Shown in pieces: positions 721 through 51,601 of a stretch of 51,601 nt of DNA. The notes below the pieces were generated by a model, which saw only the letters and a list, made by a program, of their open reading frames with translations, was not told where the DNA came from and searched no databases. The number at the start of each line of letters is the position of its first letter. Position 1 is the stretch's first letter. Source of the DNA: Candidatus Moraniibacteriota bacterium (GTDB lineage: Bacteria > Patescibacteriota > Minisyncoccia > Moranbacterales > UBA1568); contig CAIOMK010000033.1 in the NCBI GenBank assembly GCA_903859375.1, positions 1-51,601 of the forward strand. The letters are read 5' to 3'. The position numbers and the translations under genes are program-made.

Positions 721-1653
721 TCAATCGTGGCGCCAGTCGATATGTATACCACGGCGTTCGAGTCGGCGAAGCGATGACATCTGACGTTTGGCATAATACC
801 GGCTGTCTTTGAGGAGTGCCGTTTCCATATCTTCGCGGGAGAGGGTGCCTTGGAGAAATCGGGTACACCATCGGTATTCGAGGCCGAAGCCGTCGAGGCG
901 TTTCCATGACAGCCCATCTTGTTCATGAAGCCGTTTCACTTCCTCAATCATACCTTGTTCAAGCCTTTCTTTGAGTCTTTTTTCAATGCGTCCATGCAGT
1001 ATGTCCTTCGGCAAATCGATCCCAATACACTGAAAATCCTCTGACTTTCGACTTTCGACTTTTGACTCGTGACTGTTGTCTGGAACCTTTCCGAGGGTCG
1101 CGATGATTTCGAGCGCGCGTATGAGACGGACCTTGTTGTGCCGGTCGATGGTTTCCGCGCGGTCGGGATCCTTTTCGGAAAGCAACGTGAACAGCTCGGG
1201 TGCCGTCAGTTTCGCGAGTTGTTTGCGGAGAGCCGGGTCCGGCTTCACTTCGGGGAACTCGGTATCGAAGACGAGTGCCTCGATCCAGAAGCTCGTCCCG
1301 CCACAGATGATCGGTACCTTGCCACGCTTCCGTATGTCCGCGATTGCCTCTTTCGCATCACGGAGAAAGTGCGTGACGGTATAGGACCGTTTCGGTGACG
1401 CGATATCGAGCAGATGATGCTGAATTCCGCCCGAAACGAATGTAGCACAATGACTTTCGACTTTCGACTTTCGACTTTCTGACTGGACAGGAAAATCCCT
1501 TGGGATTTTTCCTGTCCCTATATCCATCCCGCGATACACCTGTCGCGAGTCGGCGGAAATAATCTCGCCACCGATTTCATGGGCGAGTTTGATAGCGAAG
1601 TCTGATTTTCCCGACGCGGTCGGCCCGACGATGACAGGAATAGTCATAAACAT
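721..1653 (-). CDS. miaA: tRNA dimethylallyltransferase (MiaA/IPP transferase)
   Basis: P-loop VIVGPTASGKS near the N-terminus, then SADSRQVYRGMDIGTGK, HHLLD and GGTSFWIEAL motifs. The start is taken at the MFMTIPV Met, because the upstream ORF extension is read-through of a repeat array. Confidence 0.9.
   Translation of the reverse strand: MFMTIPVIVGPTASGKSDFAIKLAHEIGGEIISADSRQVYRGMDIGTGKIPRDFPVQSESRKSKVESHCATFVSGGIQHHLLDIASPKRSYTVTHFLRDAKEAIADIRKRGKVPIICGGTSFWIEALVFDTEFPEVKPDPALRKQLAKLTAPELFTLLSEKDPDRAETIDRHNKVRLIRALEIIATLGKVPDNSHESKVESRKSEDFQCIGIDLPKDILHGRIEKRLKERLEQGMIEEVKRLHEQDGLSWKRLDGFGLEYRWCTRFLQGTLSREDMETALLKDSRYYAKRQMSSLRRLERRGIHIDWRHD
1042..1075 (-). repeat. Heptad array embedded in frame in the miaA CDS (encodes SHESKVESRKSE)
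   Basis: Plus strand reads tgactttcgactttcgacttttgactcgtgactg. On the coding strand this is AGTCACG AGTCAAA AGTCGAA AGTCGAA AGTCA. Confidence 0.9.
1451..1486 (-). repeat. Heptad array embedded in frame in the miaA CDS (encodes QSESRKSKVESH)
   Basis: Plus strand reads tgactttcgactttcgactttcgactttctgactgg. On the coding strand this is AGTCAGA then AGTCGAA x3. Confidence 0.9.
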
Positions 1654-1692
1654 GAAGTGTAAAGTGTAAAGTGCAAAGCGAAAAGTGAAAAA
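1654..1692. repeat. Degenerate heptad array abutting the miaA start codon
   Basis: gaagtgt aaagtgt aaagtgc aaagcga aaagtga aaaa. On the miaA strand this is a T-rich CACTTTA-type array ending at the ATG. Confidence 0.75.
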
Positions 1693-5341: not shown

Positions 5342-5349
5342 AAGGAGGA

Positions 5350-5494
5350 GTCTAAAGTGAAAAGCCGGAGAATAGTTACAAGTCGAAAGTCGAAAGTCGG
5401 AGAATAGTTACAAGTCGAAAGTCGAAAGTCTATAGTCAAAATCGGGAATGGAGACAAGGAGGGGAATTAAGAGTCGAAAGTCGGGAATGGGAAA
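5350..5494 (+). repeat. Composite heptad array with a 32-bp duplication and G-tract tail
   Basis: ggagaatagttacaagtcgaaagtcgaaagtc occurs twice in tandem (5367-5398 and 5399-5430). It is followed by tatagtcaaaatcgggaatggagac...gagtcgaaagtcgggaatgggaaaat. Confidence 0.9.
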
Positions 5495-20449: not shown

Positions 20450-22843
20450 ATGAGATCTTTCAAGGGAGTGGCAACGCTGGTGGGAAGGATATCGGGACTC
20501 GTCTTATTGTCGACAGCCCTCTTTTCCGTGGGTCCGGGTTCTTTTGTTGGGAGAATGACCGTGGCTGATGCTTCGGGTGATCTTCCCACTTCCACAAAAT
20601 CGATTACCAGATTCAGTTTTCCCGGAGTGAGTCTGTATACCGCCGTCGGAGACAGCACTATCTCGGCCATGGTCGCATACCGAACCGACGTGCGCGGTCT
20701 GGCTCCGACCATCGATCACGGAGGGGTTTCCATCAGCCCGGCATCGGGAGTGTCTCAGGATTTCTCAGTGCCCGGGAACGTCAAGTATACCGTTACGGCT
20801 GCCGATGGGACGACGCAGATCTATGCCGTCACCGTGACCGTCCAGACGGAATTGGATTCCGCAAAGCTGTCCGCATACGCGGCGCTGCGATCTGCACTCG
20901 CCGGCTATTCCTCGGGGAACTATTCTGAGGGAAATTGGGGTGCTTTGAATGGTTACAAGGTGGTCGGGGATGCGGCGATAGAGTTTTCATCCGATACGAA
21001 TGCGGTCGCACTTGTCCGGACGATCGCGATCGATGCGATGGCCGGAGTGCCGACGAACGCCGAGCTTGCCGCGATCGATGCGGCGACCGCTTCGGTGGCG
21101 AACGCCGAAAGCGCCAAGACACGGGAGAGCGTGAGCGTGTCTCAGACCCTCGTGTCCGCGTTGCCGAGTGGTTCCATCAAGACGGCTCTTCAGAGTCGGC
21201 TCGATGCCGTCCGATTGATAATCGATATCGCGGAGGCGACCGCTTCGGTAGTGATCGCCGAAGGCTCAGGGACATCCGAAAACGTGAGCGCGGCCCAGAC
21301 CCTCGTATCCGCATTGCCGAGCGGTTCCATCAAGACGGCTCTTCAGAGTCGGCTCGATGCCGTCCGATTGGCGATCGATATCGCAGCGGCGACGGCCTCG
21401 GTAACGACCGCCGAAAGTACCGACACGAGGGAGAACGTGAGCGTGGCCCAGGCCCTCGTATCCGCATTGCCGAACGGCTCCGCCAAGTCCGCCCTGCAGA
21501 ATCGGATCGACATCATTCGATTGACGATCGATATCGTGGCAGCGACCGCTTCGGTGGTGATCGCCGAAGGCTCTGGTACATTTGAAACCGTGAGTGCCGC
21601 TCAGACCCTCGTATCCGCATTGCCGAACGGCTCCGCCAAGTCGTCTTTGCAAAATCGGATAGACGCGGTCAAGGCGACCATCTCTGCAGATTCTGTTCTC
21701 GTCGTTTCAAACCTGATTTCATCGCTTCCTGCGGTCGGGGTGCTGGCGTTGTCCGATGTCACCCGGATTTCCCGAGCGAGAGTCTCATACGATGCCCTTA
21801 CGGATAGTCAGAAGGCGTCCATTTCGAATTATTCCGTCTTGCAGGCAGCCGAGGCTCAGTTTTCGATTCTGACGACGGTGACCGCCTCGGTGGTGACCGC
21901 TGAAGGCACCAAGGTCCAGGAGAACATACGTGCGGCTCAGGTCCTCGTGTCCGCATTGCCGAACGGCTCCACCAAGTCCGCCCTGCAGAATCGGATCGAC
22001 GCGATCTTGTCGGGCATCGATTTGTCGGCGTCTATCGCATCCTCGAAAGTGGCGGCTCATGATGCTCTTCGGGTCGCATTCCAGACACATCGCGAAGCGG
22101 ATTACACTTCGGCGGATTGGACGACATTGCGAGGGTTCAGGACGGATGGTGACAGTGCTATCAATGCCGCTTCCGATGTGGCTTCGTCAATCGCGGCGAA
22201 AACGACGGCGATCGATTCGATGGCCGCGATAAAAACGATTGCCCAGACAGATCCTGACCCGGTGAAAGATCTCAAGGCCGAGTATCGAACCGCGACGAAA
22301 ACCGTCAAACTTACCTGGAAGGTCAAGGGCGATACTGCCACGGAAGTCTACATTTACAAAGGTTTGACCAACCACTATTCCACAAAAAGCCGTGAACAGG
22401 TCGCCACGCAGGACATCAAGGACGAGAGCTATGGCGACTCGGACGTGAGTCCCGGCACGACGTATTATTATAAGGTGTCCTCCGTAAATATCGCGGGCAA
22501 TGCCGGCGATGCCGAAACGGTAAAAGTCGTCATCCCCATGAATGAAGCCGGACTGATGGGAAATGCTAAAGGAACGGATAAAAAGACTGCCATTGGATCG
22601 GGTGCGGTTCCGAATGTGGCGAATACCGCTGTAGCAGGGGTGACGACGAACGATCGGGATGCAGATGTGATTCCGCTGAGGGTGATAAAGAACAATGGCG
22701 TGGTGCTCGGAACGAGCGTGGAAAAAACAGTGCCACATGACAGTTTTTGGGGATCGATATGGATGTGGCTGATGCTTGCCACAGCGGTCTTTTGCGCGAC
22801 GTTCATCTGGCAATGGCGAAGGTTCGGGAATTTCGATAGATAG
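20450..22843 (+). CDS. Repeat-rich cell-surface protein (797 aa): signal peptide, Ig-like domain, 51-aa helical repeats, FN3 domain, C-terminal TM anchor
   Basis: The start is set at MRSFKGVATLVGRISGLVLLSTALFSV (signal-like). Repeats follow the pattern A.ALVSALP.GS.K.ALQ.R.D. The FN3-like region is VKLTWKVKG...TTYYYKVSSVNIAGN, and the C-terminal TM is IWMWLMLATAVFCATFIW. Confidence 0.8.
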   Translation: MRSFKGVATLVGRISGLVLLSTALFSVGPGSFVGRMTVADASGDLPTSTKSITRFSFPGVSLYTAVGDSTISAMVAYRTDVRGLAPTIDHGGVSISPASGVSQDFSVPGNVKYTVTAADGTTQIYAVTVTVQTELDSAKLSAYAALRSALAGYSSGNYSEGNWGALNGYKVVGDAAIEFSSDTNAVALVRTIAIDAMAGVPTNAELAAIDAATASVANAESAKTRESVSVSQTLVSALPSGSIKTALQSRLDAVRLIIDIAEATASVVIAEGSGTSENVSAAQTLVSALPSGSIKTALQSRLDAVRLAIDIAAATASVTTAESTDTRENVSVAQALVSALPNGSAKSALQNRIDIIRLTIDIVAATASVVIAEGSGTFETVSAAQTLVSALPNGSAKSSLQNRIDAVKATISADSVLVVSNLISSLPAVGVLALSDVTRISRARVSYDALTDSQKASISNYSVLQAAEAQFSILTTVTASVVTAEGTKVQENIRAAQVLVSALPNGSTKSALQNRIDAILSGIDLSASIASSKVAAHDALRVAFQTHREADYTSADWTTLRGFRTDGDSAINAASDVASSIAAKTTAIDSMAAIKTIAQTDPDPVKDLKAEYRTATKTVKLTWKVKGDTATEVYIYKGLTNHYSTKSREQVATQDIKDESYGDSDVSPGTTYYYKVSSVNIAGNAGDAETVKVVIPMNEAGLMGNAKGTDKKTAIGSGAVPNVANTAVAGVTTNDRDADVIPLRVIKNNGVVLGTSVEKTVPHDSFWGSIWMWLMLATAVFCATFIWQWRRFGNFDR
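21083..21694 (+). repeat. Four tandem 153-bp (51-codon) coding repeats inside the surface-protein gene
   Basis: Unit starts (gcgac...) at 21083, 21236, 21389 and 21542. Stretches of about 48 nt are identical between units. A diverged fifth unit lies at about 21880-22030. Confidence 0.9.
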
Positions 22844-35225: not shown

Positions 35226-35405
35226 TCATCCGTACAAGTCAGCCATCCCTCCATACAAGGCAGTCGTAAAGTATCCCTCCATACAAGGCAGTCGTAAATC
35301 ATCCATCCGTACAAGGCAGTCGTAAAGTATCCCTCCGTACAAGGCAGTCGTAAGGTATCACTCCATACAAGGCAGTCGTAAATCATCCATCCGTACAAGG
35401 TCGCT
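35226..35405 (+). repeat. 28-bp tandem repeat, about 6.5 copies, in the htrA 3' UTR
   Basis: tacaagg recurs at 35254, 35282, 35310, 35338, 35366 and 35394 (period exactly 28). The consensus is tccctccatacaaggcagtcgtaaagta. There are no spacers. Confidence 0.95.
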
Positions 35406-45675: not shown

Positions 45676-45949
45676 ACGAATAGTCGAAAGCCAGAGAATA
45701 GTCACAAGTGAAAAGTCGAAAGTCGAAGAATAGTCATAAGTCACAAGTCGAAAGCCAGAGAATAGTCACAAGTGAAAAGTCGAAAGTCGAAGAATAGTCA
45801 TAAGTCACAAGTCGAAAGTGAAAAGCGGGAGCGGGGAAATAATTGAAAGGCACAAGTGAAAAGTCACAAGTCGAAAGTCGGGGACGGGAGAGAATAGCCA
45901 CAAGTCGAAAGTCAAAAGTCGAAAGTCGGGGACGGGGGACGGGAAAAGC
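45676..45949 (+). repeat. Largest heptad block (274 bp), with a 64-bp tandem duplication and a G-tract tail
   Basis: It starts right after the stop codon. gtcgaaagccagagaatagtcacaagtgaaaagtcgaaagtcgaagaatagtcataagtcacaa occurs twice (45683-45746 and 45747-45810). It ends with gtcggggacgggggacgggaaaagc. Confidence 0.95.
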
Positions 45950-51483: not shown

Positions 51484-51601
51484 CCCGTTGCGGAGGATAT
51501 GGGACCCGAGGATTTTGATAAACGAAGACCCCGTTGCGGAGGATATGGGACCCGAGGATTTTGATAAACGAAGACCCCGTTGCGGAGGTTATATGGGACC
51601 C
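51484..51601 (+). repeat. 46-bp tandem repeat, at least 2.6 copies, truncated by the window end
   Basis: cccgttgcggaggatatgggacccgaggattttgataaacgaagac starts at 51484, 51530 and 51576. The third copy has a 2-nt insertion. Confidence 0.9.

Follow-up and report, generated by a model that had tools for sequence, protein, structure and literature searches.

Heptanucleotide arrays in frame within miaA of a Moraniibacteriota bacterium, with natural unit-loss alleles

How do tandem arrays of a 7-nt unit, a length that is not a multiple of three, come to lie in frame inside the gene of a tRNA-modifying enzyme? The question is raised by miaA, which encodes tRNA dimethylallyltransferase, in a Candidatus Moraniibacteriota bacterium of the order Moranbacterales (assembly GCA_903859375.1; 1.03 Mb, 78 contigs, 94% complete). 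The stretch of DNA analysed here—contig C33 (CAIOMK010000033.1), 51,601 nt, hereafter called the window—carries two such heptad arrays within miaA, and in a natural allele the loss of a single unit truncates MiaA. We propose, with a probability of roughly 0.68, that these arrays are slippage-born heptanucleotide microsatellites, which are tolerated in unconstrained loops after filtering for frame, stop codons and hydrophilicity, and that they act as frameshift hot spots, since their unit is not a multiple of three.

The miaA coding sequence (CDS) occupies positions 721..1653 on the minus strand and is an intact open reading frame (ORF) of 310 aa, counted from the ATG of MFMTIPV. Both arrays are read on this strand. 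Array 1 (~1451..1484) lies in the segment between the GTGK and HHLLD motifs, hereafter called loop 1; it reads AGTCAGAA AGTCGAA AGTCGAA AGTCGAA AGTCAT and encodes the peptide QSESRKSKVESH. Array 2 (~1040..1074) lies between LGKVP and IGID, in loop 2; its five units read AGTCACG AGTCAAA AGTCGAA AGTCGAA AGTCAGA and encode SHESKVESRKSE. Tandem Repeats Finder (TRF) reports a period of 7 with the unit GACTTTC at 1043-1067/1042-1078 and at 1452-1484, with copy numbers of 3.6 and 4.6 and 94-96% matches, and the in-frame translation across the arrays runs ...DNSHESKVESRKSEDF... and ...FPVQSESRKSKVESHCAT.... An earlier note on this DNA had placed two heptad arrays with these peptides in frame inside miaA, and the TRF calls, the intact ORF and the translation all bear it out. 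With head-to-tail 7-nt units in at least three copies, the arrays are heptanucleotide simple sequence repeats (SSRs).

Apart from its loops, the host gene is a normal miaA. Its product matches the Pfam IPPT profile (PF01715) at 2.9e-58 and 197.9 bits (curated cut-off, 23.6) over profile positions 1-242 of 243, and the solved MiaA chains in the PDB align to it at up to 4e-44. Both the GPTASGKS P-loop and DSRQVYRGMDIGTGK, the DSxQ(V/I)Y motif, are present, and the homologues, from Candidatus Moranbacteria/Moraniibacteriota, carry the name tRNA dimethylallyltransferase. A Foldseek search with the MiaA model returned 3exa, 3d3q, 3foz and 2zm5 at a probability of 1.0, with template-modeling (TM) scores of ~0.62 for 3exa, 3foz and 2zm5. 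A pseudogene or an assembly artefact was also considered for the reference gene and ruled out: the identical intact protein (P0001) is found on 106 contigs, and the arrays are far below the read and k-mer length.

Where do the arrays sit in the enzyme? In the HMMER alignment to Bacillus halodurans MiaA (2qgn), query residues 7-52 correspond to chain residues 6-51, and query residues 76-297 to chain residues 56-279. Thus 23 query residues face four residues of the B. halodurans enzyme, which gives loop 1 an excess of 19 aa, close to the ~17 residues that the earlier note had estimated relative to E. coli MiaA. Measured from GTGK to HHLLD, the spacing is 29 aa here and 10 aa in the MiaA proteins of other bacteria of the candidate phyla radiation (CPR). 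Array 1 accounts for just 11-12 of the 19 excess residues. Loop 2 aligns to 2qgn without a gap and has the canonical linker length, as expected if the second array replaces the variable linker before IGID, which is what the earlier note had claimed. In an AlphaFold2 model that draws on 37 Moranbacteria sequences (mean predicted local distance difference test score, pLDDT, 78), the two longest stretches with pLDDT below 50, residues 46-70 and 195-204, contain arrays 1 and 2, respectively; two further short segments below 50 lie at residues 39-43 and 88-90. The model thereby supports the suggested placement in surface loops, and both arrays probably sit in loops that are unconstrained and disordered.

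Does the number of units vary in nature? We sought variants in public assemblies and protein clusters, and the alleles with whole units missing are, in our judgement, the most useful new result of this analysis. Four of the five near-identical members of the MiaA cluster are full length, with both arrays unaltered in length, and the fifth is a 175-aa fragment. Contigs from two sister samples and one NCBI metagenome-assembled genome are identical to the window over ~2.7 kb. On the 15.3-kb contig L216 (ERZ27313569), one 7-nt unit of array 1 is deleted, while the sequence matches exactly over 1200 nt on each side, so that this deletion is the sole difference in the alignment. The resulting frameshift leaves a 133-aa product; the gene caller recorded just the C-terminal 175-aa fragment, and no called gene for the 133-aa product is on record. 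L216 on one side and the window, L218, L219 and L220 on the other therefore represent OFF and ON alleles of miaA that differ in copy number alone, the OFF allele being seen in one assembly only. The statement that the repeats entered the gene without breaking its frame accordingly holds for the reference allele and fails for L216. Nothing here shows that the enzyme is essential, as it had been called; the frameshift allele argues that the loss of MiaA is survivable.

The same behavior is seen in a second gene. On contig C2 (6283-7512, minus strand, outside the window), the Pfam-confirmed tsaD gene contains three in-frame heptad arrays, with the peptides ESKVESQKSK, RKSQVESQKSE and SKFKIQNSKF. 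In L221 and L222, which come from different samples, 14 nt (two units) of a (TTCAAAA)n array are gone and the gene is split, the sequences being otherwise identical over 2.2 kb. The intact 409-aa TsaD is found on 93 contigs. Also recorded are three N-terminal products truncated to different lengths and, on 5 contigs, a C-terminal fragment. A further heptad array, of the TTTACAC/TTTTCAC type on the coding strand, was detected by TRF in the miaA 5′ leader (1655..1691, minus strand), where it ends at the start codon; the variant L217 (97% aa identity) has one 7-nt unit fewer there. Length polymorphism thus comes in whole units, of 7 nt in L216 and L217 and of 14 nt in L221 and L222; no 21-nt in-frame variant was seen among the public assemblies and cluster members compared. 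Since whole-unit heptad indels are the only differences among near-clonal sequences, the arrays are the most mutable sites of miaA and tsaD. An assembly artefact is an unlikely source of the unit losses, because the arrays, at ~30 nt, are far below the k of 141 suggested by the “k141_” contig names.

What occupies the same loops in relatives? The DNA sequences of ~60 miaA genes from the order were compared. Other CPR phyla and four genomes of the same family have a 10-aa loop 1 of the ITKEEMQGIP type. In most relatives the loop is 17-48 aa long and takes the form xxRD, 7-38 variable residues and (Y/F)xSxGI. The heptad units within it include AAATTAC, AGATTCA, ACAAGAT, AGTTCAA, and ACAACTG followed by its reverse complement. 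Judged from these orthologues, the lengthened loop 1 is an order-wide feature that predates the array in the window; the 17-48 aa of the relatives hold other repeats.

Loop 2 is 15-19 aa long, near the canonical length, in most genomes, and it is never empty among the orthologues, whereas the empty 10-aa loop 1 occurs in the outgroups and the four family members. At the DNA level, 7 is the best period of loop 2 in 24 of 30 sequences, a striking figure for a coding region, and the unit varies by species (ATTCGAA, ACATTCG, GATACGA, AGGAGCA, GCTACCA, CAATCAG and GAATTAT, for example). Because the units differ between species, the encoded peptides, such as SKFEIRN, RYEIRDT, TNNQRSTINK and NYESRIMNYE, are unrelated. 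The period of 7 is kept while the peptides are unrelated, and the periodicity therefore belongs to the DNA and not to the protein. Consistently, orthologues that keep the same peptide with non-periodic codons, which would have pointed to ordinary protein sequence, were sought and none was found among the ~60 examined. The earlier note had left open whether the repeat family colonised these loops or was generated in them. Different heptad units at the same sites in relatives favor generation and turnover in place, and speak against colonisation by one mobile sequence.

The TsaD genes of 24 family genomes contain 25 period-7 and 8 period-14 arrays inside the ORF (47 TRF rows), most of which lie in two regions, around aa 135 and at aa 190-285. 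A profile scan of metagenomes with the MiaA alignment yielded mainly distant relatives, at 41-51% identity, among the matches listed. Two further kinds of repeat were noticed in the MiaA loops of relatives. A palindromic repeat family read as (V/C)HPE..EGS ... RRLARND occurs in the set of L012, L177, L179, L010 and L009, and in loop 2 of L012 a tandem triplet of ~25 aa (PPFxKGETWKSTQAM...) swells the loop to 109 aa.

The history of the loop-2 array within the close clade was followed on a tree built with the loops masked. Six taxa (the window, L211, L002, L004, L005 and L212) carry the AGTC-type array and form a paraphyletic set, and other heptad arrays stand in its place in L001, L006, L012 and L214. 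The closest relative, L211 (80% aa identity), has AAGTC units in its loop 1 as well. Between the window and L002, L004 and L005, 4-fold sites are 49% identical, as compared to 86-89% for the loop-2 array, in which all AGTC cores are retained. Of the ten loop-2 codons that encode the same residue in these six taxa, seven have an unchanging third base, as compared to 58 of 191 such codons gene-wide (Fisher p = 0.014). The array identity and the third-base invariance point to maintenance at the DNA level, through homogenisation or some constraint, which is not what a decaying relic would display.

How far does the unit extend beyond miaA? Among the tandem periods of the genome, 7 is by far the most frequent (227 of 791 TRF rows), with AAAGTCG (58) and AAGTCAC (27) as the top units. 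The AAGTCNN pattern AAGTCNNAAGTCNNAAGTC has 82 matches in the genome, as compared to 0 for the backwards-read control. Elsewhere it has 10 matches in one congener, 0 in another and almost none in 14 further relatives. Since AAGTCNNAAGTCNNAAGTC is abundant here and scarce in relatives, the miaA arrays bear the species' own unit, and the AAGTC family is, by these counts, species-specific. The counts and the dominance of AAGTCNN units confirm the suggestion that the miaA arrays share their unit with the intergenic repeat family of the genome. In the other genomes of the family, period 7 is also the commonest tandem period, and the units are diverse with no dominant family.

Coding sequences other than miaA take part as well. 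In ORFs of at least 250 aa, there are 21 lag-7 repeat segments, as compared to 0.6 in codon-shuffled controls; lags 5, 8, 10 and 11 give 0-2 segments, and multiples of three give 14-17, as compared to ~3 after shuffling. A check of other CDSs proposed in the earlier note found in-frame heptads in the Pfam-confirmed genes tsaD, uvrC (two arrays) and a GT4 glycosyltransferase gene, and also in ORFs that read as polA (DNA polymerase I) and valS (valyl-tRNA synthetase, ValRS). In nearly all coding arrays the orientation is the purine-rich one, whose codons specify S, K, R, E, Q and V. The ends of the 78 contigs bear many AAGTC-type matches; the assembly therefore breaks at AAGTC repeats. The intergenic arrays at 5349-5441 and 45678-45943 of the window are composite, consisting of 32-nt superunits with two or three AAGTCNN heptads and a GAGAATAG spacer, carry G-rich tails (GGGGACGGGAG) at their ends, and do not simply duplicate the coding arrays.

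A hairpin adjoins array 1. Directly 5′ of the array, at 1485..1517 on the minus strand, the codons of GTGKIP pair with those of RDFPV in a 14-bp hairpin with one bulge, whose predicted RNA fold has an energy of -21.6 kcal/mol (z = -5.7; 0 of 200 shuffles as good). Of 34 distinct orthologue sequences, 15 have a comparable hairpin, at least as strong as -15 kcal/mol, and these hairpins fall into at least three registers. Some of these hairpins contain compensatory changes—GGT/ACC in L008, GGA/TCC in L009, GGG/CCC in L175, and ATC/GAT versus GTC/GAC—and the native combinations of arms fold better than swapped ones (p = 0.02). We do not claim that the GTGK codons form one conserved RNA hairpin, given the three or more registers, its absence from about half of the orthologues and a p value of just 0.02. 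The hairpin is a recurrent tendency: the conserved codons just before the variable loop tend to reappear, inverted, at its beginning. Such an inverted copy could come from template switching or from quasi-palindrome correction, and the hairpin might favor pausing and slippage. The loop-2 region has no significant fold (z = -0.64 relative to shuffles).

How, then, could the arrays arise and persist? We propose that they are made, refreshed and exchanged for others by a process that works on the DNA in a 7-nt register, most likely slipped-strand mispairing, possibly aided by the adjacent fold-back hairpin. This process would act order-wide, both between genes and wherever a coding stretch is dispensable to the protein. 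Selection would serve only as a filter, which passes lengths divisible by three, sequences free of stops and, mostly, the purine-rich strand with its S/K/R/E/Q/V repertoire. The 7-residue-periodic peptide would then be a by-product that probably makes no catalytic contribution. MutS domain V (PF00488) has no match in the 94%-complete assembly; its absence may raise indel rates, and would leave the 7-nt register unexplained. Slippage also has a precedent: an earlier survey, as summarised in PMC4679880, found heptanucleotide repeats to be the most frequent class of long SSRs in the majority of its genomes and attributed them to slippage of the polymerase, and it described units of multiple-of-three length as the likeliest inside coding regions. 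The present arrays resemble the prokaryotic long SSRs described there in their tandem 7-nt units, in period 7 being the commonest, in being mostly intergenic and in the mechanism to which they are ascribed. They differ from that account in their in-frame location within conserved housekeeping enzymes, where they occupy interior loops at sites that are orthologous across an order, one unit giving way to another between species.

Several points weigh against slippage as the whole explanation. By itself it leaves unexplained the preference for 7 nt, the replacement of units at constant loop length, and the flank-codon hairpin that so often precedes the loop-1 repeats. Loop 2 has held to exactly five units, AGTC cores included, in six taxa that are close to saturated at synonymous positions. 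This constancy is not an obvious outcome of simple neutral slippage and could reflect a function of the DNA, the RNA or the peptide. Moreover, most of the named genes with arrays (MiaA, TsaD, UvrC, and the valS-like and polA-like ORFs) act on nucleic acids, which leaves room for a useful basic loop.

Might the arrays instead be contingency loci under selection? The gain and loss of units would then switch MiaA and TsaD at random, and with them the modifications N6-isopentenyladenosine (i6A37) and N6-threonylcarbamoyladenosine (t6A37), thereby generating a population mixed in its decoding properties. In favor of this, the unit length is not divisible by three and the repeat lies within a CDS, the natural frameshift alleles differ by whole units (7 nt in miaA of L216; 14 nt in tsaD of two samples), the three different truncated TsaD N-terminal products imply at least two further frameshift alleles, and both enzymes modify position 37 of tRNA. 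The closest precedent is neuO of the Escherichia coli K1 prophage CUS-3, a coding variable number tandem repeat of AAGACTC (the poly-psi motif) that encodes RLKTQDS heptads and is ON only at multiple-of-three copy numbers (PMC3046976). In both cases a coding 7-nt repeat is read in all three frames, as AAGACTC/RLKTQDS there and as AAGTCGA/SRKSKVE here, and slippage by one unit shifts the frame. The neuO array, however, occupies the 5′ end of a surface-modification gene carried by a phage, has 2-93 copies and switches at high frequency, whereas the miaA arrays of the window and its orthologues have only 4-5 units; those described here lie in internal loops of tRNA-modification genes in which the intact allele predominates. 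Intact contigs outnumber frameshifted ones by 106 to 1 for miaA and by 93 to ~5 for tsaD, loop 2 is constant at five units in six diverged taxa, and no reversion was observed among the assemblies compared. Furthermore, similar arrays occur in many unrelated housekeeping genes and in intergenic DNA, which a general mutational process fits better. Selected switching is therefore unlikely as the reason for the arrays.

The two ideas can also be combined. An order-specific DNA process with a 7-nt register would overwrite unconstrained sequence, often 3′ of a flank-copied hairpin, and the miaA and tsaD arrays would in addition serve as off/on switches of i6A and t6A. We regard this joint reading as doubtful; if it were true, decoding itself would be phase-variable in an ultra-small symbiont.

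A different origin would be the insertion of a small mobile element as a unit, as in the model of Rickettsia palindromic elements or of miniature inverted-repeat transposable elements. Rickettsia palindromic elements are discrete palindromes of ~100-150 bp that are tolerated at surface positions of conserved proteins. Their in-frame insertion in protein-coding genes, reportedly described by Ogata and colleagues in 2000, is the classic case in conserved genes. The AAGTC family is likewise a genome-wide repeat family that is tolerated in frame at the surface of conserved proteins; its dispersal over the genome, the palindromic loop-1 inserts in several orthologues (ACAACTG with its reverse complement; CHPE...RRLARND) and the “empty” 10-aa loop 1 in four family members are all compatible with insertion. 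The arrays of the window, on the other hand, are tandem repeats of 34-35 nt without a palindrome of their own, and have neither terminal inverted repeats nor defined ends. A discrete palindromic element is not found at either site: loop 2 is unstructured by its z score and has no added length, and the loop-1 hairpin is made of the host's GTGK codons and not of the array. In addition, the units of relatives differ at the same site, and the intergenic copies, with their GAATAG spacers and G-rich tails, are composites that do not reproduce the coding arrays. No match to the Y1 transposase family (PF01797) was found in the 94%-complete assembly; the absence of this RAYT/IS200-type transposase argues against insertion, and a mechanism of the type in which such a transposase acts on repetitive extragenic palindromes (REP/RAYT) was rejected on this ground. 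A gene adjoining miaA in one relative (L212:1716-2127) has a faint Y1_Tnp (PF01797) match on record. Taken together, unit insertion is improbable.

Finally, a Ser/Lys/Arg/Glu-rich tRNA-binding linker under protein-level selection, with an incidental DNA periodicity, would suit the basic, hydrophilic peptides of a tRNA-binding enzyme and the likeness of the loop-2 peptide in six taxa, but is very improbable, since orthologous loops keep the DNA period of 7 with unrelated peptides, synonymous third positions are invariant inside the AGTC cores, the AAGTC unit also fills non-coding DNA, and the variation comes in whole 7-nt units.

Slippage-born microsatellites tolerated in loops thus remain our preferred explanation, and they can be set beside other dispersed heptanucleotide families, among which the cyanobacterial short tandemly repeated repetitive (STRR) heptamers are grouped with the TAACTGA repeats as similar. 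The TAACTGA repeats of marine Beggiatoaceae and some cyanobacteria lie mostly upstream of start codons (MacGregor 2015, PMC4679880). Eleven copies within ORFs encode LSVISYQ; in proteins of assigned function they lie near the very beginning or end, with the exception of an RNA-polymerase beta-prime-like ORF, and the ORFs are otherwise mostly hypothetical (PMC4679880). Both families are species-specific, dispersed and most frequent ahead of start codons, with a minority of arrays in ORFs that yield 7-aa periodic peptides; in the present case, however, such arrays lie well inside universally conserved enzymes, and frameshift alleles are known from nature. Our literature search found no paper on in-frame heptads of this kind in CPR bacteria. 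Four features set the present arrays apart from these precedents: they sit within universally conserved enzymes, they recur in orthologous loops throughout the order, their unit is replaced between species, and broken alleles occur naturally.

The window contains other tandem repeats. At the window start, a heptad array is immediately succeeded by a perfect (CGGGAA)x11.5 hexamer array (31-99). Three repeats are unrelated to the heptads: 21080-21634 (153-nt unit, 3.6 copies), 35245-35400 (28/84-nt unit, 5.6 copies) and 51484-51601, a repeat of a 46-nt unit that runs past the window end.

What does this mean for the biology of these bacteria? Across an order of CPR bacteria, the loop sequence of conserved housekeeping enzymes would be set by a DNA-level repeat process and not by protein selection, which cautions against taking such loop peptides for functional motifs. 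The same arrays explain the assembly breaks at repeats and the split gene calls in these genomes. Arrays at orthologous sites with changing units offer a clean data set for addressing the preference for 7 nt in prokaryotes. As frameshift hot spots, the arrays are weak points in miaA and tsaD, for which broken alleles are seen in nature, and they raise the question of whether tiny symbionts can switch off the modification of tRNA A37 through repeat slippage.

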